From the NCBI GenBank assembly GCA_016871995.1, contig VHBL01000007.1, positions 695 to 32,694 of the forward strand: a stretch of DNA of 32,000 bases, given 5' to 3'. The DNA comes from Nitrososphaerota archaeon (GTDB taxonomy: Archaea; Thermoproteota; Nitrososphaeria; Nitrososphaerales; UBA57). Below are positions 1 to 18,222 of the stretch, piece after piece; positions within the stretch are counted from its first letter, which is position 1, and each line of letters opens with the position of its first letter. Below the pieces are notes generated by a model. That model searched no databases, was not told the origin of the DNA, and worked only from the letters and a program-made list of their open reading frames with translations. A program made the translations under genes and the position numbers.

Positions 1-1477
1 CTATAACAGGGGTAACATAATGATCTGGTCAATCGGCGGAGCGGCTGAAGGGACCTGGGGCGGAAGGTCATATGTTGCAGGTCACGATATTACGACGGGT
101 CAGCTGAAATGGAGATTTTTCTACATCCCACCATGCGGAGATCCAGCAACATGCAAGCCTCTATTCCAAAGGGAGAAGCAAGAATGGGGCAACTGGCTAG
201 TACAAAATTGCAATAAGATATGGATACAAGCCATAAGATCATGCACACTAGATCAGGATCTATTAAGAAACGACTTTGGAAACATGAGGTTCAACTCTGG
301 AGTAAGCAATGTGTGGGGAACTTATGTAGTTGACCAAGAAACTGGCATAGTCTACTTTGGAACTGCGCAGGCAGGGCCAGACTGGAATGCAACGCATGCA
401 CCTGGCTTCAGACTGTTCGGAGCTTCAGTAATAGCACTTAATGCTGGAACAGGAGAGCTTGTATGGGCACATCAGACTACAGCACGGGACCTATGGGACT
501 ATGACTGCTCATGGAATACAGTACTTGCAAATGCAAAGATAAAGGGACAGAATAAGAAAGTAGTCATAAAGGGTTGCAAGAACGGAGTTGTACACGTACT
601 AGATGCGGCTACAGGAGAGCTGATACACTTCCTGCAGAGTCCTGACATAAAGAGAACGCCTGAGCAGTTGTTAGGTAATAGGGAATGGGGTGGTATAACC
701 TACGATCCAAGGAGTAAGGAGCTTATGACGAAGCCGTGGACTAATTACCCAAGCAAAGATCCATTCTGGATGAACTGCCCAGTCACCGGGTGCCTCGAGT
801 CAGACATTGCATATGATCCAACAAGGAACATGGTGTATGCGGGTACCTATAATGCACCTACATGGAGCAGAGTTACAAACGTTGACCACAGAGGAGCGAG
901 CTTAGGAGGACAAATAAATCCGGCTGGTTTTCCTGCACCATACTCACCAAAGATCAACTCAACAATCAATGCTTGGGACCTAGACACTGGTCAATTGAAA
1001 TGGAAATATTTCATCAATGATAAAGGCTTCAGAGGAGGAGTGTTGGTCAGCGGAGGACTAGTATGGTTCGCTGCAGTAGACGGAATCGCGAGAGCTCTAG
1101 ATGCTGATACTGGAAAAGTCCTCTATGAGCAAAACCTTGGTATTTCGACATTAATTCAACCAACAATAGCCGCAGATGCTGATGGCAAGGTGAAGCTCTT
1201 CAGAGTTGTTGGAGGGCGTGCACTTGGCGCACTCCTTGGTCCTGGCGTAGGGTCAGATGTACCTGGAGCAATAATGGCCTATGGTCTAAGCGACAATATT
1301 CCAGCACCAAAGGAAGTCATAAAGGAAGTACCAAAGGAAGTCATAAAGGAAGTACCAAAGGAAGTCATAAAGGAAGTAACAGTGGAGACGGTTTCTCCGA
1401 TATCCTACGCTATAGTAGGGATAGGAATCATCGTAGCTGTAGTAGGTATAGTAGCATCAAGAAGAAAGAAGGCATAG
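1..1477 (+). CDS. PQQ-like beta-propeller (quinoprotein dehydrogenase-like) protein, 5'-truncated by window edge, C-terminally membrane anchored
   Basis: The frame stays open upstream of the ATG at 20, to the window edge. Repeated propeller blade motifs are present (TTGQLKWRF, GTGELVWAH, ATGELIHFL, DTGQLKWKY, DTGKVLYEQ). The C-terminus has a (KEVIKEVP)x3 spacer, one TM helix and an RRKKA tail. Confidence 0.75.
   Translation, partial: YNRGNIMIWSIGGAAEGTWGGRSYVAGHDITTGQLKWRFFYIPPCGDPATCKPLFQREKQEWGNWLVQNCNKIWIQAIRSCTLDQDLLRNDFGNMRFNSGVSNVWGTYVVDQETGIVYFGTAQAGPDWNATHAPGFRLFGASVIALNAGTGELVWAHQTTARDLWDYDCSWNTVLANAKIKGQNKKVVIKGCKNGVVHVLDAATGELIHFLQSPDIKRTPEQLLGNREWGGITYDPRSKELMTKPWTNYPSKDPFWMNCPVTGCLESDIAYDPTRNMVYAGTYNAPTWSRVTNVDHRGASLGGQINPAGFPAPYSPKINSTINAWDLDTGQLKWKYFINDKGFRGGVLVSGGLVWFAAVDGIARALDADTGKVLYEQNLGISTLIQPTIAADADGKVKLFRVVGGRALGALLGPGVGSDVPGAIMAYGLSDNIPAPKEVIKEVPKEVIKEVPKEVIKEVTVETVSPISYAIVGIGIIVAVVGIVASRRKKA
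1307..1378 (+). repeat. Perfect 24-bp tandem repeat x3 (ccaaaggaagtcataaaggaagta), encoding PKEVIKEV x3
   Basis: Three identical consecutive 24-nt units read directly at 1307-1330, 1331-1354 and 1355-1378, in frame within the CDS. Confidence 0.95.
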
Positions 1478-1512: not shown

Positions 1513-1563
1513 CAAACGCTTTTCCGTTCGTAGTAATATGTCGTAATTTGCGATTATTTTTGG

Positions 1564-1575
1564 TGGACCGGGAGG
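1564..1575. repeat. att core, distal copy (TGGACCGGGAGG)
   Basis: Identical to the complement of the last 12 nt of tRNA-Ala (10633-10644). The following 10 nt match 6/10 (tatttgaata versus gattcgaacc). Confidence 0.7.
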
Positions 1576-1804
1576 TATTTGAATATGTTTAGGTTCAAAT
1601 ACCTTACTTTTAGAGGTAATTTATGATATGTCAGTATGTCAGTTAAGGGTTAAATGGGTTTGATTCTTGCTTATTCTAACAATCAGAGCAATTTCTGAAG
1701 GGGTATATATAGGGGTTGGCGGATTGTAGTCTAAGGTCGCTTATCCTCTAGGTCTTTGACTTCCTTAATTTTGGATTTCCTCATTCGTCTTCTAATGTCA
1801 AGAC

Positions 1805-2389
1805 CTACTCAGCCCGAGGCTTTTGGGTATTCAATTCTAAGAGTTTTAGTTTGCTCTCATAATACTTGTCCATATCAGGAACCTTCGCAAGGATATCCAC
1901 CAATAGAAGGGACTGCTGCATTATACCCAAACTTATTACATGTAGCCTTATCGGATCGTGGCTCAGGGGTGTCTCTGATTTCCTTGAAATCAGCATATCT
2001 CGTAAAATAGAATTTGTAAGCATGTCAACCATGTCCCTCCAATATCTGCTATCACCTTCTCCCCTGCGAAGATGCTCGGCTATTTTGGTTCGGTTATGCA
2101 CAACTCTTACGAGTCTTGCACCGAGTTCTATCAACCATTGGCTATATCCATCCTTGGAGAACTCATAAACAGCGTTTGGAGGAAAGACCTTCTCTTTGTG
2201 CCTTAAAATGACACCTTCTTTTTCAAGCCAGTCAAGATACTTTCGCAGTGATGCGGTTCCTATACCCTTCCCCTTCTCTTGAATCTCCCGCCAAGGTTTA
2301 GGCTTCCCATCAGAAAATAATTTTAGAATGAAGTTCATAATACGGTTTTCATCAGAAAGAACCCTCTCTTCAAGATTGGTCATTTCCAT
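1805..2389 (-). CDS. Winged-helix DNA-binding protein (putative element regulator)
   Basis: The N-terminal segment ENRIMNFILKLFSDGKPKPWREIQEKGKGIGTASLRKYLDWLEKEGVILRHK looks like a wHTH. The ATG at 2389 is preferred over the TTG at 2419 because it lies 33 nt from the shared TATA box. Confidence 0.55.
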   Translation of the reverse strand: MEMTNLEERVLSDENRIMNFILKLFSDGKPKPWREIQEKGKGIGTASLRKYLDWLEKEGVILRHKEKVFPPNAVYEFSKDGYSQWLIELGARLVRVVHNRTKIAEHLRRGEGDSRYWRDMVDMLTNSILRDMLISRKSETPLSHDPIRLHVISLGIMQQSLLLVDILAKVPDMDKYYESKLKLLELNTQKPRAE

Positions 2390-2396
2390 AAATGGC

Positions 2397-2463
2397 TCAT
2401 ATTTCAGTATCAAAAACAAACTTTATAAACATGTTGTTTTCATATTTCAGCATCGAAAACAAA
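2397..2463. promoter_or_regulatory. Divergent promoter/operator: palindromic TATA box TTTATAAA (2422-2429) flanked by two 24-bp direct repeats
   Basis: tcatatttcagtatcaaaaacaaa (2397-2420) and tcatatttcagcatcgaaaacaaa (2440-2463) match 22/24. The TATA box is 33-34 nt from both divergent ATGs (2389 minus strand, 2463 plus strand). Confidence 0.5.
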
Positions 2464-2624
2464 TGAAAAAGCAAACCGAATACATCACCCTGTGTTTAGA
2501 CATGGAGACTTTCAAGCGCCTCGAGGCCCGAGCAGAGCAGGAAGAAAGAAAACCGGGGCAGCTTGCACGATTGATTTTGAAAAAAGTGCTTGGAACCGAA
2601 GAGGAGGTTGCAATCGCAGCATGA
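2463..2624 (+). CDS. Ribbon-helix-helix (CopG/Arc-like) protein, 53 aa
   Basis: MKKQTEYITLCLDMETFKRLEARAEQEERKPGQLARLILKKVL fits a beta-strand/helix/helix RHH pattern. This is the internal ATG of track ORF 2328-2624, placed directly after the promoter repeats. Confidence 0.65.
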   Translation: MKKQTEYITLCLDMETFKRLEARAEQEERKPGQLARLILKKVLGTEEEVAIAA

Positions 2625-2848
2625 AGGTTTCACTCGCGAGGACGAAGGGCTACGTTTCGAAATTACCAGTGTCGACTTTCAAAAACATCATTTTGGCCGA
2701 GCGTGATGAAATTGAGCTCTCTGACCTGATTTCGAAACTTGAAACTTGGGAAATTCTACTCAATCAAGAAATGAGCTTTCGGGAGAAGTCCGGTTCAACG
2801 AAACTTCTCCCGGCTGCAGAGCCGGTTTCTTTAGGAGGCCCTGTGTAA
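2621..2848 (+). CDS. Hypothetical protein, 75 aa
   Basis: An ATGA start/stop overlap with the RHH gene suggests translational coupling. It is followed 1 nt later by the prim-pol GTG start. I recognise no motif. Confidence 0.4.
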   Translation: MKVSLARTKGYVSKLPVSTFKNIILAERDEIELSDLISKLETWEILLNQEMSFREKSGSTKLLPAAEPVSLGGPV

Positions 2849-2849
2849 A

Positions 2850-3680
2850 GTGTTTACAGTCAATGCTGATATTAAAACGTTAACGCTTCAGGGGTTCATT
2901 AAGCTCTATCTTGAGTGGGGTATTTCTTTTGTACCTCTAATATACAAAGACAAAGCTCCGGCTCTTCAAGAAGGCGAGATTTACAAGTATCGGAAGAGGC
3001 AACCCAACGAACAAGAGATAAAAAGATGGTTTTACAATGGCTCGCAACATGGCATAGCTGCTGTTTGTGGTTTCAATAACTTAGTATGCTTGGATTTTGA
3101 CGATCGGAAGACATTCGAAGCCTACATAGCTGGAAGGCCCTTACCAGAAACTTTCATAACAAAGAGTGCCAGAGGCGTCCATCTTTACTTCATCAACGAT
3201 AAGCCAATTGGTAGTATGAGATACGAGGGCTTGAAAGTCGAACTGCTGGGGGCGTGGCATCTTTCAACGCTTCCGCCCTCTTTGCATCCTTCTGGCATTC
3301 AACATTCAATACTCAACATGCGTCCGATCAAATCGGTATTTGGAATTGAGACGGCATTTAACGCATTTGCAAAGTCTCAGGGTATAGACACTAAGAAATC
3401 TTCTAAGGCCATCACAAAGGCAGATTTAACGGGAATCGTCCCTGAGGGGATTAGGCACGAAACGGCAAAGAATTATGCTAAGCACCTCATTAGAGGCTTA
3501 AAACTAGATAGTACAACGTCTCTGTTCGAGCTTCAACGCTGGAATGAGAAGCATTGCGTACCTCCCCTTCCTGAAGGGGAACTCATAGACCTAGTACGGT
3601 ATTTCAGCTCGAAGCAAAGGCAGATTTCTGCAGATTTGACCGAGGAGTTTGCAAAAAGGAGGGGTAGCTTTGCAGAGTGA
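2850..3680 (+). CDS. Bifunctional DNA primase-polymerase (prim-pol, archaeo-eukaryotic primase superfamily)
   Basis: Motifs LVCLDFDD (DxD), ARGVHLYF (sGxGxHxyF-like) and VELLG...LPPSLHPSG. GTG start with GGAGG 12 nt upstream. Confidence 0.85.
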   Translation: MFTVNADIKTLTLQGFIKLYLEWGISFVPLIYKDKAPALQEGEIYKYRKRQPNEQEIKRWFYNGSQHGIAAVCGFNNLVCLDFDDRKTFEAYIAGRPLPETFITKSARGVHLYFINDKPIGSMRYEGLKVELLGAWHLSTLPPSLHPSGIQHSILNMRPIKSVFGIETAFNAFAKSQGIDTKKSSKAITKADLTGIVPEGIRHETAKNYAKHLIRGLKLDSTTSLFELQRWNEKHCVPPLPEGELIDLVRYFSSKQRQISADLTEEFAKRRGSFAE

Positions 3681-5007
3681 ACTTTCCACAATCGCTTTGA
3701 CAGAAGACACTAAACCATATGAAGTTGCAGAGGCATACCTTCAAGCAGCTTTTGTAAAGACATTTTTTGACTCGAGTGAGATAGTCCTCTATCACGAAAA
3801 AGGGGTTTATGTTAGAAACGCCGAATGGATAATTGCAAAGGACATCGAAGAGGTCTTTCATAAGAAGAAGTTAGATAAACTTCTGACTAACAACTTCCTT
3901 ACTGAAGTTCTAGGTCATATAAGGAGGAGAACTTATGTTAACCGCTCAGAGTTTGATAAAGAGCCTTTTATTCTTAATCTAAAGAATGGATTACTCAATG
4001 TACAAACAGGGGAATTTACAAAGCACAGTCCTGAGCATCTCTCTTTAGTACAGTTTCAGGTTGAATACAATCCGAAGGCGAATTGCCTTAAGATAGCAAA
4101 GTTCCTTTCAGAAGTGTTATTCCCTGACGATCTCCAATGTGTACAAGAATACGTTGGTTTCTGTTTATGGAAAGAGTACACGGTTGCAAAGGCTCTCTTA
4201 CTCGTTGGAGAAGGTGGAAACGGGAAGTCAACTTTCATTTTATTGATTAAGGCATTAATCGGAAGTGAAAATACCTCCTCAGTTTCACTTCAAGAATTGG
4301 AATATAACAGATTTGCGAAAGCAGATTTGTACGGAAAGCTAGCTAACCTCTATGCAGATCTTCCTGATGAAGCTCTAAAGAGCGCTGGGGTTTTCAAAAT
4401 GTTGACCGGCAAAGATCCAATAAGGGGAGAGTACAAATTCAGAAATTCCTTTCCCTTTGTCAATCTTGCAAAGTTGATTTTTAGTGCTAATAAGGTTCCA
4501 GAGTCATATGAAGATACGACAGCATTCTTTCGGCGTTGGATAATTATTCTATTTCCTTTTACATTCATAGGCAAGAATGAGAACAAAGACCTCGTCAATG
4601 AGCTGACAACGGAAGAGGAGCTTTCAGGCTTCTTGAATTGGGCTTTAGAAGGGCTGCAAAGACTTAGAGCTAACGGTTGGAACTTCAGTAATAGTAGGAG
4701 CGTAGAAGAGGTCAGGGAAGAGTACATTCGAAAATCCTCCCCGATACAAGCTTTCATCATGGATTGTATTGATATTGATAGTTATAGCGAAATTCCGAAA
4801 AAACAGCTATTCGATAAGTTTCTTGAGTACTGTAAGAGCAAGAAACTACCTGCTCCTTCAGATCAGACCTTTTTCAAGAAATTACCTCGATTTGTCAACA
4901 TAACTGACACTAGGCCGGAGGTTGGCGGAAAGAGAGTTCCCTGTTTCAAAGGGATCAAACTAAAGGAAGAGGAGGGCGTAAGAAACGCTCAAGCAAAGAT
5001 TAGTTAA
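3649..5007 (+). CDS. D5/P4-primase-type superfamily 3 helicase (NTPase)
   Basis: Walker A LVGEGGNGKST, downstream LANLYADLPDE, and a C-terminal region typical of phage/plasmid primase P4-family helicases. The in-frame TTG at 3670 sits 7 nt after GGAGG (3658-3662) and is an equally likely start. Confidence 0.85.
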   Translation: MQKGGVALQSELSTIALTEDTKPYEVAEAYLQAAFVKTFFDSSEIVLYHEKGVYVRNAEWIIAKDIEEVFHKKKLDKLLTNNFLTEVLGHIRRRTYVNRSEFDKEPFILNLKNGLLNVQTGEFTKHSPEHLSLVQFQVEYNPKANCLKIAKFLSEVLFPDDLQCVQEYVGFCLWKEYTVAKALLLVGEGGNGKSTFILLIKALIGSENTSSVSLQELEYNRFAKADLYGKLANLYADLPDEALKSAGVFKMLTGKDPIRGEYKFRNSFPFVNLAKLIFSANKVPESYEDTTAFFRRWIIILFPFTFIGKNENKDLVNELTTEEELSGFLNWALEGLQRLRANGWNFSNSRSVEEVREEYIRKSSPIQAFIMDCIDIDSYSEIPKKQLFDKFLEYCKSKKLPAPSDQTFFKKLPRFVNITDTRPEVGGKRVPCFKGIKLKEEEGVRNAQAKIS

Positions 5008-5018
5008 CTCTTCTGACA

Positions 5019-5117
5019 TTAAGATAGGAAAAACCCCTGACAGAGTTGACAGGGTTGACGGAACTAGGGTTTTTGCGTCAGGGCTGTCAGGGCTGTCAAC
5101 CCATTTCCCTATCTTAA
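5019..5117. repeat. Inverted iteron array, candidate replication origin of the element
   Basis: Outer perfect 10-bp inverted repeat ttaagatagg (5019-5028) / cctatcttaa (5108-5117). Left arm has three 9-bp-spaced TGAC units (tgacagagt, tgacagggt, tgacggaac from 5037). Right arm has gtcagggct x2 plus gtcaaccc (5077-5102). gggttgac (5052-5059) and gtcaaccc (5095-5102) are perfect inverted 8-mers. Confidence 0.5.
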
Positions 5118-5359
5118 GTTCCGAAAGCCCAAAGGCTAACCCTTCAACCTTAGACTATTGGATCCAAAGTCCGAAACTTAACGCTAGGTTAACTCTAATC
5201 AAAGAAAAACCCTCTAAACTTAACGGGTTAACTATTCCTTCCTTCAGGCTAGGAATAAAATGCTCTGAGCATAAAGACCTTCAATATAACAATCCAATTT
5301 CATGGAGAGATCACTACCTCTTAACGCATGGCTTGATATTTGAAGAGGAGCAAAGTTAG

Positions 5360-5599
5360 ATGCCGAAAGCTAGGCTTGAAAGCGAAGGCAGTTATGAGAG
5401 ATGGCTTAGTCAGGTTGCGAAGTTTAGCAATCGCTTTAGCCCTTACAAAATTCCCAGAACAAAGGAGCATGGAATAAGGAAGAGGCCGAAGCCTGAGCAT
5501 GAAGCTACAATCAGATACGAATGTAAGCCATGTGATCTAACCTTTCAGAATTTAGATTTGTACGAGATTCACAATGCGCTCAAGCATAAAGCAGGATAG
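5360..5599 (+). CDS. C2H2 zinc-finger protein, 79 aa
   Basis: YECKPCDLTFQNLDLYEIHNALKH has C-x2-C-x12-H-x4-H spacing. Confidence 0.6.
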   Translation: MPKARLESEGSYERWLSQVAKFSNRFSPYKIPRTKEHGIRKRPKPEHEATIRYECKPCDLTFQNLDLYEIHNALKHKAG

Positions 5600-6275
5600 T
5601 GTTAGCAAATTGCAAACAATCAAGAATAAACGCAAAGGAAAGATGCTCCAACCTGAGGTTGCTCAAAAATGGGAAGCTCTGAAGCAATCTCTAAACTTCA
5701 GATCGGATAACGAATTTGCCAATGCTCTTTTAGAAACTCAGAAGGATCGCTTAGTCCCCTTTGTCAGCCATGAAACTGTATTTAATTCACCTGCTCCAAC
5801 TCTCATAATTGGGGAGCCGGGTTCAAGAAAAACAACCTTAGTTAAGCAGTTAATCCCTTCAATTCGAAATTCTATCCTATGCATTGATCCCCATAGCGAG
5901 TACTTAGAATTGGAGCAGTTCAACGGGAAGGGAGAGGTTGTTAGCAAAGTCCCCTTAGGTTTCGAAATACTGAAGGGTTCGATGATTGACTTTAGCAGGA
6001 AACAACGATTGAGGTTTATCCCTTCACAAAACCCCTTTGTTTCTGAAGCTGAGACAACTAGCCTCTTTATGAGTTTGAATGAAAGCAGGGAAAAAATGAA
6101 GGGTTGGACTCTAATCGTTGACGAATGTCATAGGTTCTCAGGTAATAGTTTATTCCGAAGCTTCATAACAGAGAGTAGAAAGTATTCGATAAAGTCAATT
6201 TTGATAACTGCTGATTATGCGAAGTTTGAAGGGTTGGGCTATTTCCTAAGGCCTGCTCCAATTGGAAGGGCTTGA
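5574..6275 (+). CDS. Small HerA/FtsK-like P-loop ATPase
   Basis: Deviant Walker A IIGEPGSRKTT, a HerA-like ILCIDPHSEY motif, and Walker B/sensor TLIVDECHRF. An alternative start is the ATG at 5643 (MLQPEV). Confidence 0.6.
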   Translation: MRSSIKQDSVSKLQTIKNKRKGKMLQPEVAQKWEALKQSLNFRSDNEFANALLETQKDRLVPFVSHETVFNSPAPTLIIGEPGSRKTTLVKQLIPSIRNSILCIDPHSEYLELEQFNGKGEVVSKVPLGFEILKGSMIDFSRKQRLRFIPSQNPFVSEAETTSLFMSLNESREKMKGWTLIVDECHRFSGNSLFRSFITESRKYSIKSILITADYAKFEGLGYFLRPAPIGRA

Positions 6276-6584
6276 ATGTTTCCAATCGTCATATCCCCTG
6301 AAATTACAATAGTCATCTTCGGCGTGATAGTCTTACTTACCCTTCTGTTTCTTCAATCCCTAATATCAGGGTTCGGCTTAAGGGCCATTACTCGTTTCAT
6401 TGTGGCAATCTTGACCCTGCTCGGTTTTGCACTGGGCCTGATGCCATTTATCCTGAACTCAGCAGGCTCTTCGATGGAGCTTTCAATTTTTACTCTGGTC
6501 TTTTTATCAATTGGCCTTTCGGTGTCTAGCTTCGCTTTGAGTTTTTTGATAATAAGACCCTCTGCCAGTCATGCCAGAGCCTAG
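6276..6584 (+). CDS. Small integral membrane protein (about 3 TM helices)
   Basis: The ATG directly abuts the ATPase stop (TGAATG). The protein has three long hydrophobic segments. Confidence 0.5.
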   Translation: MFPIVISPEITIVIFGVIVLLTLLFLQSLISGFGLRAITRFIVAILTLLGFALGLMPFILNSAGSSMELSIFTLVFLSIGLSVSSFALSFLIIRPSASHARA

Positions 6585-6787
6585 AATTTTAGTTAATAGC
6601 TGATCTAAGAAGGGGTACTATCACACGTACACACACTAATAGCAAATCTCAATCAAAATTTGTTATTTTGTTCGTGATCTGTCAAATTCAAAAATTCCGT
6701 CTAGCTGTGGATTGACCAAATCAAATTCAGCAGTTAACTTTCAAATCTTATCAGGCGACAAAAAGAATTGCCCAAAGATGTTAAAGA

Positions 6788-6841
6788 TGGTAAAGATGCC
6801 GAACAACCGTCTGTTAGCATTATTTAATTAGTTGTGGTATA
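6788..6841 (+). CDS. Candidate micro-ORF A1, 17 aa (MLKMVKMPNNRLLALFN)
   Basis: Paralogous to A2. The C-terminus PNN(R)LLxxFN-stop is conserved and the one indel is exactly 3 nt (cgt), so the frame is preserved. Confidence 0.3.
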
Positions 6842-6966
6842 TTGAGCGTCGCCCAATCAAACAATCCTAAAGTTAACCGAAGCTCTGTCAATGATTGATG
6901 TTGACGATGTGGGTGAACAAGAAGAGATTGCCCGTCTATAGATATATTATTTCTATATTGGTAGTT
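6809..6966 (+). repeat. Duplicated intergenic module, copy 1
   Basis: Aligns with 8105-8252. It shares a perfect 38-nt block (ctaaagttaaccgaagctctgtcaatgattgatgttga) and a perfect 22-nt block (tctatagatatattatttctat). Confidence 0.9.
6901..6951 (+). CDS. Candidate micro-ORF B1, 16 aa acidic peptide (MIDVDDVGEQEEIARL)
   Basis: Same length, start and stop position as B2. The first 7 residues are identical and the middle diverges while staying acidic. Confidence 0.3.
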
Positions 6967-7027
6967 GTCGGGCTAGTTTGGAGAATGAGTATGTTTTTAT
7001 TTTTGTTGTCAAGTAGATGTAAAAGAC

Positions 7028-7990
7028 ATGGATAACGCTCTAATTAACAAAATTGAAGGCTCTCTTCTAAAATTAAGAATGTATCAAGCGCAGAGAACTC
7101 TCAGCATAGAAAAATATTGGCAAATGACATCTTTTACAAAGTTAAGGAGTCGGTTCTCGGAAAAATATGCTTATGCTAACAGATACGATTGTTCGGCTTT
7201 CATGTTAGACTTTTGGAATAAAAAATGCCTTGAACTAGAAAAGAGATTCCTTCCATACCCCCCCTTTTCTTTTCTAAGGGACAAGACAATCAGAGCCACA
7301 ATGAATATATCTGAAGGTTATGCTTTCTGGCTCTTACAAAAGTATCTCCAATTCCTAGAAACGAGACTTTCTGAAGATTACCTATCGAATATGCTTCAAG
7401 AAGATTATGTTGGAGAGCAAATCATTCTTAATTCAAAATACATGACTTCGTATGAAACTGTCCAGCATCTTTATCACTTCTTAAAATTAGCTGATTTTGG
7501 ATGCAAAATAGATGATGTATCAAGCGTTGTAGAATGGGGAGGAGGATATGGTGATATGGCGAAGCTTTTTGTCAGAATGAACTCAAATAGAAACGTCAGC
7601 TATACAATAATAGATATTCCCATAATGTCCTGCCTTCAATGGCTTTATCTTTCAAGTATTTTTGGTGAAGGGAAGGTTAAGATTATCCAAGACAGAGGTG
7701 AGCGAATTGATAACGGGAAAATAAATTTGCTTCCTATATCTCTGGTTGAAAAATGCGATATTAACGCTGATCTATTCATATCTACATGGGCTTTAAGCGA
7801 ATGTACTAATTATGCTCAAGATTACGTGGTCAATAAGAACTGGTTCAACGCTAGAAACATCTTGCTCGCCTATCAATATAACACTTCAGAGGTTCCAAAT
7901 GCTGAAAGGTTAGGCAGGTTAGCAGAGCAAAGTGGAGCAAATGTGCAAGAAATGGAGATAGTGCCAAGACATCATTATGCTTTTCGGTAA
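7028..7990 (+). CDS. Class I SAM-dependent methyltransferase (possibly sugar/small-molecule O-methyltransferase-like)
   Basis: Glycine-rich SAM-binding motif VVEWGGGYGDMAKLF followed by an acidic-loop pattern (YTIIDIP). No DNA-MTase (D/S)PPY motif. The gene is visibly AT-rich. Confidence 0.55.
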   Translation: MDNALINKIEGSLLKLRMYQAQRTLSIEKYWQMTSFTKLRSRFSEKYAYANRYDCSAFMLDFWNKKCLELEKRFLPYPPFSFLRDKTIRATMNISEGYAFWLLQKYLQFLETRLSEDYLSNMLQEDYVGEQIILNSKYMTSYETVQHLYHFLKLADFGCKIDDVSSVVEWGGGYGDMAKLFVRMNSNRNVSYTIIDIPIMSCLQWLYLSSIFGEGKVKIIQDRGERIDNGKINLLPISLVEKCDINADLFISTWALSECTNYAQDYVVNKNWFNARNILLAYQYNTSEVPNAERLGRLAEQSGANVQEMEIVPRHHYAFR

Positions 7991-8077
7991 CGGGGTTCAA
8001 TTTAGGCTATTTCTACCACATGGTAAATATTGAATGTATAAATCTAATTAGAAGGCAGAAGATAGTACCTGTTAATA

Positions 8078-8134
8078 ATGGGACTGATGGGATTGGTGGA
8101 AATCCCGAACAACCTGCTAGGTAGATTTAATTAA
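8078..8134 (+). CDS. Candidate micro-ORF A2, 18 aa (MGLMGLVEIPNNLLGRFN)
   Basis: See A1. Confidence 0.3.
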   Translation: MGLMGLVEIPNNLLGRFN

Positions 8135-8252
8135 TTAGTTATGGTGGGACAATCAAACTATTCTAAAGTTAACCGAAGCTCTGTCAATGATTGATGTTGA
8201 TGATGTTGACGAAGGGGACGATGATGCCGGTCTATAGATATATTATTTCTAT
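8105..8252 (+). repeat. Duplicated intergenic module, copy 2
   Basis: Same direct repeat as 6809-6966, with several indels. The two copies bracket the methyltransferase gene. Confidence 0.9.
8187..8237 (+). CDS. Candidate micro-ORF B2, 16 aa acidic peptide (MIDVDDVDEGDDDAGL)
   Basis: See B1. Confidence 0.3.
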   Translation: MIDVDDVDEGDDDAGL

Positions 8253-8437
8253 GCTGATAATAGTTTGATTAGTTAACTTAGTGCAAAGTCCCTAGTATAG
8301 TCAGGCTCAAACCCTAGCTGACAAAGGCATGTTTCGGCATGGGTCCCCCTAGCCAAACAAAGAGGAAATTGGTTAACTCTTATTCAATATTCTCCTAGAA
8401 ACTTAACTTTAATAACCTGCAGGGACTATATCAAATC

Positions 8438-9052
8438 ATGCAAAGTCATTTAGTTTTGAAGGGAGCAGAAGAGCTGATTAAGGAAGAGCTAGGGGATAAT
8501 CCTGCTCAGGATCAGAAGGTCAAGGTTTATGCTTCTCATTTAGCAGATAGATGCACTCAGTTATCAGGGGAAACATGGACTTCTAAGAACTGCACAAACT
8601 CTTTGCGATCTTACGGGCTTTGGGATAGCGAACGGTTTCCAACTTTGCAGGGGAAATACGGCTTCTACGTTTTAGTTTCTTTGAATGACCTAAAGCAATT
8701 GAACCTCTGGGAGTGCTATGTATGCAATAGCAGGATCGTCAAAGGTCAGGGTAATGTTTGGCCTCATATCTTTGAATGTTGGGTAGAAGGGGTTTCCTGC
8801 TCTAATTTATATTGTAATACCGTTGTTAAATCCTATGAAGAGGTACTTGAACATGAAAAAAATTGTCAGGTTTCTTTTATACCCTATAACTATGGTAGTT
8901 GCCCTGCCTGCAATGCGAAAATAAAACTATCAGAAATCAGAAGGCATGTCAATCAATGCAAAGATATCTTATCATGGGAGGAGCCTGAGCAACCTAGCAC
9001 AAAGGAAACAGAAACCCCTAGCATAATCGAAGTTAAGAATGAAGCGCCCTAG
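8438..9052 (+). CDS. Cysteine-rich protein with three CCHC zinc-finger motifs
   Basis: CYVCNSRIVKGQGNVWPHIFEC (C-x2-C-x13-H-x3-C), CSNLYCNTVVKSYEEVLEHEKNC (C-x4-C-x12-H-x3-C) and CPACNAKIKLSEIRRHVNQC (C-x2-C-x11-H-x3-C). Confidence 0.6.
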   Translation: MQSHLVLKGAEELIKEELGDNPAQDQKVKVYASHLADRCTQLSGETWTSKNCTNSLRSYGLWDSERFPTLQGKYGFYVLVSLNDLKQLNLWECYVCNSRIVKGQGNVWPHIFECWVEGVSCSNLYCNTVVKSYEEVLEHEKNCQVSFIPYNYGSCPACNAKIKLSEIRRHVNQCKDILSWEEPEQPSTKETETPSIIEVKNEAP

Positions 9053-9275
9053 AAGAGTCAATCAGGATCTTCTAGCCATAATGCAAAGGTACGGGATTAG
9101 TGAAGATGGTGAAGTTAGTGAAGGCAGTGAAGGTAAAAAACACCCCCCATTATTTCCAGAAGTTCGTCAATTAACTAATAAAGATTCGTCAGAAAAAACA
9201 GGGGAGGCTCTGGGAAGTTCACCACCTTCACCAAGTTCAGTAACTTCAGTAGATAAAGTCAGGAAGGCAGTTTGA
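9039..9275 (+). CDS. Hypothetical low-complexity (S/E/P-rich) protein, doubtful
   Basis: This is an ORF only. It overlaps the upstream gene by 14 nt and the convergent integrase 3' end by 17 nt. Confidence 0.2.
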   Translation: MKRPRRVNQDLLAIMQRYGISEDGEVSEGSEGKKHPPLFPEVRQLTNKDSSEKTGEALGSSPPSPSSVTSVDKVRKAV

Positions 9276-10578
9276 TGATCGCTTTATCGTTAGGGATATG
9301 CGTTGCAAATTCCCAACCCTGCAATATGTAATTCTCCAATTCGTTAAGAGGAATAACCTTCTGCCTTGATCCATTACCCGTTAACATCTCTCTGTACTTC
9401 TTAGCGATAAGCTCCTGAAACTCTTTGCTAGTTATGTTTGCCAAATCTAGTTTAGCGATCTCCCCTTCTGAATAACCTAAATCTGCCAATAGAGCAGCTC
9501 TAAACCCTCCTCTAACATCTTGCTGAGAGCTGATAACCCTAGTCTGCAAATATTCCTTTGAAGCTTTAGCATAGGAAGCTCTCATATCCTCTATTACGCT
9601 CTCAGGTAGTTTGTGCTTATTCGTTGTGTACCTAGCTTCGATATCCCCTTTATGTCCCATGAAAAAGACCCTATAATCTCTTAGAATGAGGCCCTTACTC
9701 TCAGCTAACATCATTTCAGTATCAAAATAACTTCTTAGAACATAGGGCCTCCATGAAAAACCTGCTTCCCTTATGGGACCTCTGAGAGCATCACCAATAT
9801 TGTTAGACCTGATAAACGGCCTGTCAGCTGCTTTGAATGTTGGTGATTTCGCTTTAATGAGAGGGGACTCTGGATCGAATTTACTAGTACCATTCCCCCT
9901 TAACCTGCTCTCAAGATAGTCTTTGAGATATTCGCAAGCCTCTTCATTCAGGAAGCTAAAGTATTGATGTCTTGCTTTGCTAAGTTGCGATCTGACAATA
10001 ACCCTAGCAGGAATAACCGTAAAATTGACCTCTGACCCCTTGATCTCAAGCTCAGGAATATCCATAACTCTGAGTCCGTCAGAGCCGTCATAATTGCCAA
10101 TACTTTCAAGCCTAAGGCCTGCAAAGCACACTAAGGAGGCCGTTGTCTTAACCTTCGGATCGGCAAAGGATAGTATCTTAACCAATTCCTTCTGAGTTGG
10201 GACTCTCTCTTCCTTCAGTGAAGGGGTTTCGTCAGCTCCTTTGACCTTGATTTTTCTTTTAACTTCAATCCCATGATGAGAGAGCCATGACTTTACATTC
10301 TTTAACCTGCTTTCAACATAAGAGCCTGCATATTTCTGCCTCTCCATAGAGCTGACATAATCCATAAGGAGATTATAGAGGTCCTGCTCATTCAGCTTCA
10401 AAAGGTCTTTAGGTTGCTTTCTAACATTCTGACAGAAGTTTCCTAGTCCACGAAGATAAACGTCAGCTGTTGTTATTGCACCCCTAGCAACATTCTCATA
10501 CCATCTTTTGATATCAGGGTCTTTAAGGAGGGCTTGATGTTCACCTTTGCCTTTTTCCCTATACTTCCCCTTAGCCAT
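9259..10578 (-). CDS. int: Tyrosine recombinase/integrase (intact, pNOB8-type arrangement)
   Basis: Catalytic-type motifs FAGLRLESIGN (Arg), YVLRSYFDT (Arg) and GHKGDIEARYT (His...Tyr). The start is set at MAKGKYREKGK (10578) because the 32 upstream codons of the track ORF are read-through of the tRNA gene. Confidence 0.85.
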   Translation of the reverse strand: MAKGKYREKGKGEHQALLKDPDIKRWYENVARGAITTADVYLRGLGNFCQNVRKQPKDLLKLNEQDLYNLLMDYVSSMERQKYAGSYVESRLKNVKSWLSHHGIEVKRKIKVKGADETPSLKEERVPTQKELVKILSFADPKVKTTASLVCFAGLRLESIGNYDGSDGLRVMDIPELEIKGSEVNFTVIPARVIVRSQLSKARHQYFSFLNEEACEYLKDYLESRLRGNGTSKFDPESPLIKAKSPTFKAADRPFIRSNNIGDALRGPIREAGFSWRPYVLRSYFDTEMMLAESKGLILRDYRVFFMGHKGDIEARYTTNKHKLPESVIEDMRASYAKASKEYLQTRVISSQQDVRGGFRAALLADLGYSEGEIAKLDLANITSKEFQELIAKKYREMLTGNGSRQKVIPLNELENYILQGWEFATHIPNDKAIIKLPS

Positions 10579-10632
10579 AACACTAAGTCTAAAAGATTGC
10601 ACTAGATAAGGGTATCTGAACCCGTTTATAGA

Positions 10633-10644
10633 TGGACCGGGAGG
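10633..10644. repeat. att core, tRNA-proximal copy (3' acceptor strand plus discriminator of tRNA-Ala)
   Basis: Same 12-mer as 1564-1575. Confidence 0.7.
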
Positions 10645-10706
10645 GATTCGAACCCTCGACCCCCACCATGCCAAAGTGGTATCCTACCAGGCTAGACGAC
10701 CGGCCC
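10633..10706 (-). tRNA. tRNA-Ala (anticodon GGC)
   Basis: Manual cloverleaf: acceptor GGGCCGG/CCGGTCC with the alanine identity pair G3:U70, anticodon arm CCACT-TTGGCAT-GGTGG, T arm GAGGG-TTCGAAT-CCCTC, discriminator A. Length 74 nt. Confidence 0.9.
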
Positions 10707-10820
10707 ATGTTCAGAAAGTGATCTTAAAGCGCGTTTTGGAGTCCTTATTTGGTTTTTCTAATCCAATCGAAACTTAGCCCTAGTGTAGTTGTACATTTTT
10801 GACTGCAAATAAGATTAATT

Positions 10821-16878: not shown

Positions 16879-17016
16879 TAAAATCCTTACCGATGTTCAT
16901 CTCAGCGGTGTCTTTGTAGTGAGCCAAGGCGCAATCGCTGATGTTAGAAGTCATTTTGGACACTTAATAAATCCAAATCATAAGTATATACCGAGCAAAA
17001 CTCAACGGGTGATTGT

Positions 17017-17958
17017 ATGGGGACCACGCATAAGGTAATTTTTGGTAATTCGCTGAACATGAAAGAGTTGCGGAGGAACAGTATTCATTTGGTAGTAACT
17101 TCTCCGCCATATTTTAACGCGCCTTTCGATTATCCAGATTTTTTCAAAACCTACAAGGATTTTCTAGCACTTATCAAAGGTATGGCGAAGGAGCTTAAAC
17201 GAGTAGTCGCACCGGGCAGAGTTTGTTGCTTTGTTGTAGATGACATGCTTGTGGACGGTGAAAAGTTCCCTGTTGTTTCAGATGTTACACAAATAATGAC
17301 ACGATCAGGTTTCAGATATCGAGACAGAATAGTTTGGATAAAGCCCAAAGGCTATGTTAGGATTAGTCGGAGAAGCGGAGTTCTGTTGCAACATCCCTAT
17401 CCGATGTATTTCTATCCTGACAACATGCAAGAAAGCATCCTTATCTTCCAAAAGGGGAAGTTTGATTATTCTTATCTTAAAACTCTGCCTGCTGAGGTCT
17501 TGGCTAGATCAAAGATAGATGTCAAGGAGTTCAATCTTACGGATGCGCCCTTTATGGTTTGGGACGACCTAAGCGGGGAGGAAAGAAAACCTATTCCAAA
17601 CACGTGGCGGATCACTAATGTTCTGCCGATGAAAGGACGTTTGGAAGAGGGTGTGGCTGCCTTCCCCGGAGAAATCGCTAGACGGCTGGTAAAGCTGTTT
17701 ACATTTATTGGAGAGACTGTGCTTGACCCATTTGCAGGCTCGGGCACCACGCTCAAGGTTGCAAAAGAGTTAGGAAGGAATTCGGTTGGTTATGAAATTG
17801 ATTTGGAGCTTAAGCCAGTCATCGCAGAAAAACTTGGACTTGAACAAGCTACACTTTCGAACGACGCAGTCGAGTTTCTAGAAAGAGATGATGCGGGTCA
17901 TTTCCGAACCACCCTACAGGAAAAAGTGGAGCATAAAGAGAGTGTCGCTACAAGATGA
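17017..17958 (+). CDS. Beta-class DNA methyltransferase (N4-cytosine or N6-adenine)
   Basis: Motif IV VVTSPPYFN lies near the N-terminus and SAM motif I LDPFAGSGTT near the C-terminus (IV before I defines the beta class). Confidence 0.85.
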   Translation: MGTTHKVIFGNSLNMKELRRNSIHLVVTSPPYFNAPFDYPDFFKTYKDFLALIKGMAKELKRVVAPGRVCCFVVDDMLVDGEKFPVVSDVTQIMTRSGFRYRDRIVWIKPKGYVRISRRSGVLLQHPYPMYFYPDNMQESILIFQKGKFDYSYLKTLPAEVLARSKIDVKEFNLTDAPFMVWDDLSGEERKPIPNTWRITNVLPMKGRLEEGVAAFPGEIARRLVKLFTFIGETVLDPFAGSGTTLKVAKELGRNSVGYEIDLELKPVIAEKLGLEQATLSNDAVEFLERDDAGHFRTTLQEKVEHKESVATR

Positions 17959-18147
17959 GCGCATCAGAATAACTGCTGAAATTACTGGTATAAAATATGT
18001 TCCGAAACTTGGAAGGACGCTACACGAATTTTATATCTCATCACTGGCGGAGGCACTTTCGACAGATGTGTCGTTTTTTAGAAACGGATGATTGTACGTT
18101 AAGGGTTTATCTTGGATTTGGGCTGATTCTGGCGATGTTTTTTGTAG

Positions 18148-18222
18148 TGGGCCAGGGCGGACTTGAACCACCGACCTTCGCTGTGTAAGAGCGATGTCCT
18201 AACCAAGCTAGACGACTGGCCC
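18148..18222 (-). tRNA. tRNA-Val (anticodon UAC)
   Basis: Manual cloverleaf: acceptor GGGCCAG/CTGGCCC, anticodon arm TCGCT-CTTACAC-AGCGA, T arm GGTGG-TTCAAGT-CCGCC, discriminator A. Length 75 nt. Confidence 0.9.

Follow-up and report, generated by a model that had tools for sequence, protein, structure and literature searches.

A 9-kb plasmid-like element very probably integrated at a tRNA-Ala gene of a Nitrososphaerota archaeon

When the 3' end of a tRNA gene lies next to an integrase gene and recurs some kilobases away, the question arises whether the DNA in between is a mobile element and, if so, of what kind. Such a locus is found in a 32-kb stretch (hereafter the window) of a Nitrososphaerota archaeon (GenBank assembly GCA_016871995.1, contig VHBL01000007.1, positions 695-32,694), where a preliminary description had proposed an element integrated at tRNA-Ala(GGC). 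The evidence set out below makes it very probable that window positions 1564-10644 are a cryptic integrated element (CIE), a plasmid-like replicon of 9,069 bp when one copy of the attachment (att) core is counted. Comparisons draw on the source genome (G000, 1.5 Mb), two genomes of the same genus (G001 and G002) and one of the same family (G004), and the features are collected in Table 1.

Two copies of the 12-mer TGGACCGGGAGG, and no more, are present in the window, one at 1564-1575 and one at 10633-10644, each on the plus strand. As the preliminary description had stated, the second copy is the 3' end of an intact tRNA-Ala(GGC) gene on the minus strand, which is recognised both by ARAGORN (10631-10707) and by Rfam (10633-10706, 56 bits, with the full model covered). 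Discriminator A73, the acceptor stem's 3' strand (CCGGTCC) and 4 nt of the T stem together make up the complement of this right-hand repeat, and the G3:U70 pair is kept in the tRNA. A given 12-mer in one orientation is expected 0.002 times by chance in a sequence of this length (32000/4^12), and two or more matches of TGGACCGGGAGG were obtained in none of 100 shuffles.

The sequences that adjoin the two cores differ in an informative manner. Read in the sense of the tRNA, CCA and next an A-rich trailer come after the distal core, an ending also seen in tRNA-Ala(GGC) of G001 and of G004; after the proximal core, which completes the present tRNA, the sequence is unrelated and has no CCA. Such an arrangement is predicted by integration at the 3' end of a tRNA gene: the distal site is the displaced original 3' end of tRNA-Ala, and the proximal core came from the element or is common to element and tRNA. 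In the mechanism we propose, the tyrosine integrase would have recombined the attP site of the element with the 3' end of the chromosomal tRNA-Ala(GGC), with strand exchange within the common 12-bp core. The element would now provide the sequence past the last 12 nt of the tRNA, which would be left intact with its CCA no longer encoded, and the original 3' end, with CCA and trailer, would have been displaced by 9 kb.

Similarity between the two sites does not stop at the core. The 10 nt beyond the repeat are identical at six positions, as had been noted before, and in the sense of the tRNA the two att sites match at 18 of 20 positions; thus the arm of the element copies the T loop, in agreement with the earlier suggestion that attP mimics the T arm. 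In addition, the 10-mer GGTATYTGAA is present in three exact copies in the window, at 1574 (+), 1594 (-) and 10611 (+), where about 0.12 would be expected, and all three lie no more than 25 bp from the two cores. The first two copies form a perfect hairpin beside the distal core, and as single-stranded DNA this inverted repeat folds with -8.6 kcal/mol (z = -4.4). We propose that the inverted repeat is an integrase-binding arm of attP and that, in the reconstructed attP, the three GGTATYTGAA sites flank the core, where the integrase may bind these or the T-arm-like sites. The region at 10611 is likewise proposed as an integrase-binding and promoter region. At most loci of the integrase family a T-arm-like motif lies about 8-12 nt past the tRNA end and is followed by a TATA-like box, the counterpart in the window being GGGTTCAGATACC.

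A survey of 80 integrase-family loci (L024-L103) gave a consensus near GGTTCGRAACC for this motif, situated 8-30 nt past the tRNA 3' end and followed by the TATA-like box and the integrase start, whichever tRNA is the target. The motif seems to be either an attP arm that mimics the T arm in general or a conserved promoter or operator of the integrase gene.

The integrase itself is encoded by an uninterrupted open reading frame (ORF) that remains open over 439 codons. Its ATG, at 10578, is separated from the tRNA end by 54 nt (55 bp in the preliminary description), and the att core is thus 54 nt outside the gene. The preliminary description had named a lack of catalytic residues, together with a 12-mer that is not at the junction of any polymorphism, as grounds for giving up the idea of an element; as to the residues, the pattern R156...K201...Y279xxR282...H309...Y317 is present, and all six residues are invariant in an alignment of 28 homologues. 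A profile of the family gave a weak match to XerA (4A8E), with YxxR aligned to HxxR. The pNOB8-type (class II) integrases are defined by the signature R...YxxR...Y and by a gene that stays whole after integration (PMC8371274), and both are found here. The SSV-type (class I, 'suicidal') integrases can be set aside, the gene being intact and the motif YxxR rather than KxxR. In a BLASTP comparison with pNOB8 Int, identity was 25% over 233 of 439 residues (53% of the length, E = 4e-6), with the GLR and YxLRS motifs paired and YxxR against YxxR, and hhalign gave a probability of 81% over 135 columns. The homology to XerA and to pNOB8 Int lies in the catalytic region. The narrow pNOB8 integrase family is delimited at 30% identity over 60% of the protein (PMC8371274). 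The integrase is therefore of pNOB8 type by motif and lies outside the narrow family, and the earlier assignment stands in the wider sense only.

Homologues of this integrase number more than 2000 (52-62% identity) and are distributed over Nitrososphaerota, Bathyarchaeia, Thermoplasmata and DPANN. At 32 of the 80 surveyed loci a tRNA gene precedes the integrase gene on the same strand with a gap of 48-164 nt, a range that includes the 54 nt of the window, and the target tRNAs are of at least eight kinds (Pro, Ala, Val, Lys, Arg, Ser, Gly and Cys). No match was obtained when the integrase was searched by tblastn against PLSDB and INPHARED (E <= 1e-3), nor did integrase and helicase profiles find a relative among the 2.9 million viral contigs of IMG/VR.

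What lies between the repeats is consistent with a small replicon. Twelve tightly packed ORFs are present, with a GC content of 0.36-0.43 as against 0.45-0.47 outside, and they were scanned with Pfam, PHROGs, NCBIfam and PADLOC. The domain matches PF09250, PF08706, PF19263 and TIGR01613 together describe a replicase of the primase-polymerase (prim-pol) and superfamily 3 (SF3) helicase type, as in pRN1 ORF904, here encoded by two coupled genes. These genes overlap in different frames, and translation of the helicase probably starts at position 3670 with an in-frame TTG, situated 5 nt past GGAGGGG and overlapping the prim-pol stop codon. Homologues of the helicase (n = 1708, 50-56% identity) occur both stand-alone and fused to prim-pol and PriCT-1. 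With the helicase having a start of its own, the split therefore represents a normal gene arrangement rather than a frameshift. After excision, the circle would be copied by this pair of proteins, as in pRN1-type replicons, and the winged helix-turn-helix (wHTH) protein and the small DNA-binding proteins may govern copy number and integrase expression.

The remaining genes are less readily assigned. The wHTH ORF probably starts at an internal ATG near 2389. The 53-codon ORF had been called ribbon-helix-helix (RHH), an assignment that was dropped for want of tool support: Pfam, NCBIfam and PDB gave no match and no similarity to pNOB8 CopG was found. Among the ORFs of the element as a whole, a homologue of PlrA was not found and a homologue of CopG was not confirmed. 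The 320-residue cargo protein matches SAM/sugar O-methyltransferases in Atlas structural searches (TM 0.72-0.77), and its gene lies in the part of the element with the lowest GC content (0.356-0.365). The preliminary description had held all genes to be plasmid- or virus-like. This can be upheld for prim-pol, SF3 helicase, zinc finger and ATPase, with a weak match for the wHTH protein; the RHH protein falls away, and a sugar-O-methyltransferase-like cargo gene is no hallmark. The scans, which yielded replication, regulation, ATPase and methyltransferase functions and left small ORFs without assignment, recognised no virion, conjugation or casposase genes, in keeping with the earlier view that genes for a capsid or a pilus are not recognisable.

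Table 1. Features of the integrated element and of its attachment sites (window coordinates; aa, amino acids)
Feature	Position	Strand	Remarks
Distal attachment site	1561..1575	-	Core 1564-1575; complement of encoded CCA at 1561-1563; chromosomal trailer to the left
Perfect inverted repeat by the core	1573..1604	.	Two copies of GGTATTTGAA; arms 11-12 bp, spacer 10 nt
wHTH regulator, HxlR-like, 204-aa ORF	1805..2419	-	PF01638 E = 0.001, below the Pfam cut-off; phrog_2030 transcriptional regulator 6e-4
53-aa ORF, earlier called RHH/CopG-like	2463..2624	+	Strand-helix-helix pattern by eye only
75-aa ORF	2621..2848	+	Overlaps neighbours operon-like; one weak tblastn match near an integrase in L058
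Prim-pol (AEP), 276 aa, stand-alone gene	2850..3680	+	PF09250 E = 9.6e-14; phrog_1156 DNA primase
SF3 helicase, P4-family primase C-terminal module (D5_N + DUF5906 + winged helix)	3649..5007	+	TIGR01613 4e-61; phrog_864 3e-94
79-aa C2H2-type zinc-finger protein	5360..5599	+	Weak zf-met match E = 0.11; Cys/His pattern by reading
Small FtsK/HerA-fold ATPase, longest ORF 233 aa	5574..6275	+	DUF87 9e-5
102-aa hydrophobic protein	6276..6584	+	Start abuts the ATPase stop; no family match
Direct repeat (~165 bp), copy A	6795..6965	+	Flanks the methyltransferase cassette
Sugar-O-methyltransferase-like protein, 320 aa, cargo	7028..7990	+	TIGR04371 E = 1.3e-10
Direct repeat (~165 bp), copy B	8098..8260	+	Flanks the methyltransferase cassette
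204-aa zinc-finger protein	8438..9052	+	PF18574 zf_C2HC_14 E = 3.7e-6
78-aa ORF, function unassigned	9039..9275	+	No family match
Tyrosine integrase, 439 aa, intact	9259..10578	-	PF00589 2.5e-4 (weak)
T-arm-like motif GGTATCTGAACCC	10611..10623	+	Integrase-proximal; TATA-like box next in integrase sense
tRNA-Ala(GGC)	10633..10706	-	Last 12 nt (10633-10644) are the proximal att core; CCA not encoded

The small ATPase is the gene product whose affiliation bears most on the nature of the element. Its start is probably the ATG at 5643, giving 210 aa, and it is translationally coupled to the hydrophobic protein downstream, which is probably a membrane protein. An AF2 model that was built from an alignment of 59 homologues reached a pLDDT of 88.8 (36 from the single sequence), and the Walker A residue Lys86 is invariant among the homologues. 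In Foldseek, the top match of this model is the genome-packaging NTPase B204 of STIV2 (E = 2e-5, TM 0.42-0.49), and a library of viral structures returned a corticovirus NTPase, the ATPase of virus PH1, Zot and A32-like ATPases. The VIA-align Z scores are tied (HerA 12.3, VirB4 12.0, B204 11.7), and a profile search of PDB sequences returned P-loop matches only. By its predicted fold, the protein is a single-domain member of the FtsK/HerA superfamily, built like viral packaging enzymes. Conjugation proper would call for ATPases of the VirB4/VirD4 class together with pilus or mating-pore genes; what is found is a single one-domain ATPase of 210-233 aa, with no other conjugation family matched.

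When this ATPase was used as a query against 61 genomes of the order, homologues appeared only in the three genomes of the genus, each beside an integrase, and a broader metagenome search added a sole distant locus, L132 on a groundwater metagenome contig, at 34% identity. Movement between cells is not recognisably encoded in the element, and the only candidates for a part in it would be the ATPase and the coupled membrane protein. It is conceivable, though we think it improbable, that the ATPase represents an undescribed exit route of archaeal elements that lack a capsid, either as a minimal DNA pump in the membrane or by packaging into particles taken over from a helper virus. In the latter version the element would be a satellite of a virus of the double jelly-roll (DJR) type. 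At L132 (1643-8579), the ATPase gene comes last in a row of co-directional ORFs (359, 576, 1014 and 84 aa), neighbours that have no Pfam match, and this row could be the structural module of a virus-like element.

Both flanks of the element are cellular, as had been described: a PQQ propeller gene lies on the left, and DUF3467 and DEAD/MZB helicase genes lie on the right. With the whole element as query, the 14 other genomes of the family yielded only diverged matches at other loci, to the integrase (68% nucleotide identity) and to the ATPase (66-77%). The element as a whole was not found in them, nor was the same 9 kb seen in conserved synteny, an outcome that the preliminary description had said would speak against an insertion. 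Five or six other assemblies contain near-identical copies of the element's proteins, the contigs in question being 22.6-35 kb long; a scan of JGI metagenome contigs for the pattern of the left junction found nothing, the near-identical records possibly being outside the scanned set. The tRNA-Ala(GGC) of G001 has cellular neighbours and no integrase. Elsewhere in G001, on contig C60 (L024), an integrase of 62% identity lies next to an ATPase of 59% identity and beside a 28-nt 3' piece of another tRNA, with no far-end repeat before the contig ends; the complete counterpart of this tRNA in G000 (C2:90123-90213) is without an integrase.

Several points weigh against the interpretation as an integrated element. 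Neither an empty site nor a circular junction was seen, and excision, replication and the binding of the integrase to the 10-mer are all inferred. No true empty site is present in G001 or G002, where the locus is rearranged, and the assembly of G002 is without a tRNA-Ala(GGC). Synteny with both genomes stops at about window position 10802, 95 nt 5' of the tRNA. The DUF3467-helicase block is syntenic in both, but is joined there, on its upstream side, to DNA of G000 contig C6 (C6:34745-34897; C25 in G002). The locus of tRNA and element is at or beside the breakpoint of a multi-step chromosomal rearrangement (window ~10708-10802), and these two genomes therefore cannot serve as a comparison of before and after. 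The 12-bp core is short, and the likeness of the trailer to G001 and G004 spans just 12-14 nt or so. Since 12-mers of the tRNA region recur by chance across the 1.5-Mb genome, the weight of the evidence lies in the position and orientation of the repeats and in the other features of the junctions, not in the 12-mer alone. Lastly, among family loci with at least 6 kb downstream, at least 10 bp of the tRNA 3' end recurred at the far end at L075 only, the others having 10-11-mers at chance level, and the family thus offers little independent support for short cores.

Alternatively, the 12-mer could have recurred by chance, with the limits of the foreign DNA lying elsewhere, or with that DNA and the tRNA brought in jointly by the chromosomal rearrangement. 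The break of synteny just 5' of the tRNA would fit such an origin, as would a left flank that is one of many PQQ propeller paralogues and a tRNA without the intron present in G001 and G004. A chance repeat does not explain the 10-mers specific to the junctions or the CCA with its trailer, and the place of the repeat coincides exactly with the tRNA 3' end, and with the shift in GC content and the edge of the mobile genes, its two copies being directly oriented; we regard this explanation as very unlikely indeed. Of more weight is the view that the insertion was real and that the element has since become a fixed, inactive resident: with excision and spread at an end, it would now be an island in decay or under domestication. 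None of the 12 closely spaced ORFs is interrupted, the integrase has every catalytic residue, both cores are identical with exact flanking 10-mers, and the replicase genes carry no frameshift, their split having its own ribosome-binding site and start codon, all of which argues for an intact element. On the other hand, no excised form was seen, the near-identical copies on contigs of 22.6-35 kb suggest assembly in integrated form, the methyltransferase cassette with its flanking repeats of ~165 bp may be a later insertion, and other integrase fragments are present in the genome. An inactive resident has, on balance, an appreciable if minor chance of being correct.

The small ATPase raises the further prospect of a provirus, or a satellite, related to the membrane-containing icosahedral viruses with DJR capsids, in which the ATPase would be a packaging enzyme of the A32/B204 type and the membrane protein part of a packaging vertex. 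The best Foldseek match and those in the viral library (corticovirus, PH1 and A32-like ATPases) point in this direction, the size and single-domain build of the ATPase fit B204 rather than HerA or VirB4, and at L132 a series of large ORFs without annotation leads up to the related ATPase. Genes for an integrase, for zinc-binding proteins and for HxlR-type proteins are likewise found in thaumarchaeal DJR proviruses (PMC6563490). Against this, no TM score reaches 0.5, and HerA, VirB4 and B204 are level in Z score. A length of 9 kb is also about half the size of STIV. A DJR provirus should have a double jelly-roll capsid gene beside the ATPase, and none is seen among the larger ORFs, the folding not having included the small ones: every ORF of at least 200 aa is otherwise assigned, and the sole one of capsid size (320 aa) is methyltransferase-like. 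Together with the absence of the integrase family and the helicase from the IMG/VR viral contigs, this makes the provirus a minority reading, and a doubtful one.

The cryptic integrated element that we favour has counterparts among characterised elements. In 20 thaumarchaeal genomes, 74 integrated elements have been catalogued, most of which are CIEs, generally shorter than 20 kb; all but one of the elements that target tRNA genes sit in the 3' region, and the att sites, 8 bp at the shortest, have a median length of 17 bp (PMC6563490). Prim-pol and SF3 helicase are fused in some of these elements and split in CalSub-E1 (PMC6563490). Of the marks of the class, the present DNA shows a multigene element with an integrase, bounded by direct repeats and devoid of recognised virion, conjugation and casposase genes; for a further mark, insertion as judged against a related genome with an empty site, the likeness of the trailer is the only support. 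With CalSub-E1, NitKor_MY1-E1 and NitAQ6f-E4, named elements that were compared by description only, it shares the phylum, a tyrosine integrase, insertion at the 3' end of a tRNA gene, a short att site, the size class, prim-pol and SF3 helicase (split as in CalSub-E1), the lack of recognisable virion and conjugation genes and an auxiliary cargo gene. It differs in its host, which belongs to a different uncultured lineage, and in a cargo that comprises the small FtsK/HerA ATPase with its membrane protein, two zinc-finger proteins and the sugar-O-methyltransferase-like gene. The element thus fits the CIE class in the features tested and is of a kind already catalogued in these archaea. The preliminary description had singled out the combination of cargo genes for comparison; it is not unusual, split replicases being on record for thaumarchaeal elements, as are att sites of 8-17 bp (PMC6563490).

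Other known systems offer partial parallels. The plasmids of the pRN family (pRN1, pXQ1 and pSSVi) are small replicons with a prim-pol-SF3 helicase replicase and small DNA-binding regulators, and some of them integrate in tRNA genes. The replicase of pRN1 is a single fused protein, and integrative forms of the family use SSV-type integrases that are split on integration. With elements that have pNOB8-type integrases the present element shares a gene left whole after integration, an attP beside the gene, the R...YxxR...Y signature and the 439 aa of pNOB8 Int, whereas its core is 12 bp as against 40-50 bp in elements of Sulfolobales (PMC8371274); pNOB8 itself, unlike the element, is a conjugative plasmid of 41 kb. 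The DJR proviruses NitGar-E1/E2 and NitEve-E7 and the STIV-type viruses resemble it in a small ATPase belonging to the FtsK/HerA superfamily, a tyrosine integrase, zinc-binding proteins and an HxlR-type regulator; unlike them, it has no DJR capsid gene, and its ATPase is inseparable from HerA and VirB4 by fold score.

The element leaves existing knowledge of such elements unchanged, and adds to the thaumarchaeal mobilome one cleanly delimited, apparently intact 9-kb replicon from a lineage without a cultured member. The anatomy of its attP, a 12-bp core with three copies of a 10-mer around it, provides a testable substrate for a very large and uncharacterised family of integrases. For elements this small, use as a basis for shuttle vectors has been suggested (PMC6563490). 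The way in which elements with neither capsid nor pilus move, and any part that the small ATPase may have in it, are of wider interest.

A number of further observations concern the tRNA, the integrases and the repeats. The tRNA-Ala(GGC) genes of G001 (contig C55, L021:4993-5098) and G004 (contig C64, L022:~3657-3771) carry an insert of ~32-38 nt right after position 7 of the acceptor stem. In the case of G001, the insert is a stable hairpin of 9 bp, and the remaining 67 nt are 100% identical to the tRNA of the window, itself without an insert. The insert-bearing genes are missed by ARAGORN, and Rfam covers only model positions 10-63. The insert looks like a non-canonical tRNA intron that was lost in the present genome. 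The 67-nt matches in G001 and G004 are not att remnants, as they might be taken to be, but complete tRNA genes interrupted by the insert past position 7.

A second integrase, 23-25% identical, occupies an orthologous locus in G000 (C2:~134900-140355; L137, L129) and G002 (C25:112800-118430; L116), with about 5 kb of cargo that differs between the two. In G000, a copy of the 204-aa zinc-finger protein (81% amino acid identity) lies beside this different integrase on contig C2, at the same position and converging on the integrase gene, and the G002 version has the small ATPase. Elements within one genome or genus thus appear to swap modules. A fragment of 38 aa, 55-57% identical to the integrase's C-terminal end, is found in G000 at C1:706900-707013, beside the 3' end of tRNA-His (C1:707016-707088), and is probably left over from a further element of this integrase family.

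The two copies of the ~165-bp repeat in the window are about 80% identical, and each holds a short conserved ORF beginning MIDVDDV. Related copies are present elsewhere in G000 (C2:138082-138197, C2:79443-79558 and C1:282576-282654), one of which precedes the zinc-finger paralogue on C2. The repeat may be the boundary of a cassette, a shared promoter or leader, or a small repeat element.

Outside the element, the PQQ beta-propeller gene of the left flank (window 20-1477) belongs to a very large paralogous family with about 60 places each in G001 and G002, and each genome has dozens of copies of a C-terminal segment of ~170 nt (query 1308-1480). Further to the right, a DNA methylase gene (window 16974-18222) adjoins tRNA-Val(TAC), and is about 71% identical at the DNA level to the methylase gene that precedes the integrase on G001 C60 and to another copy on G000 C2.

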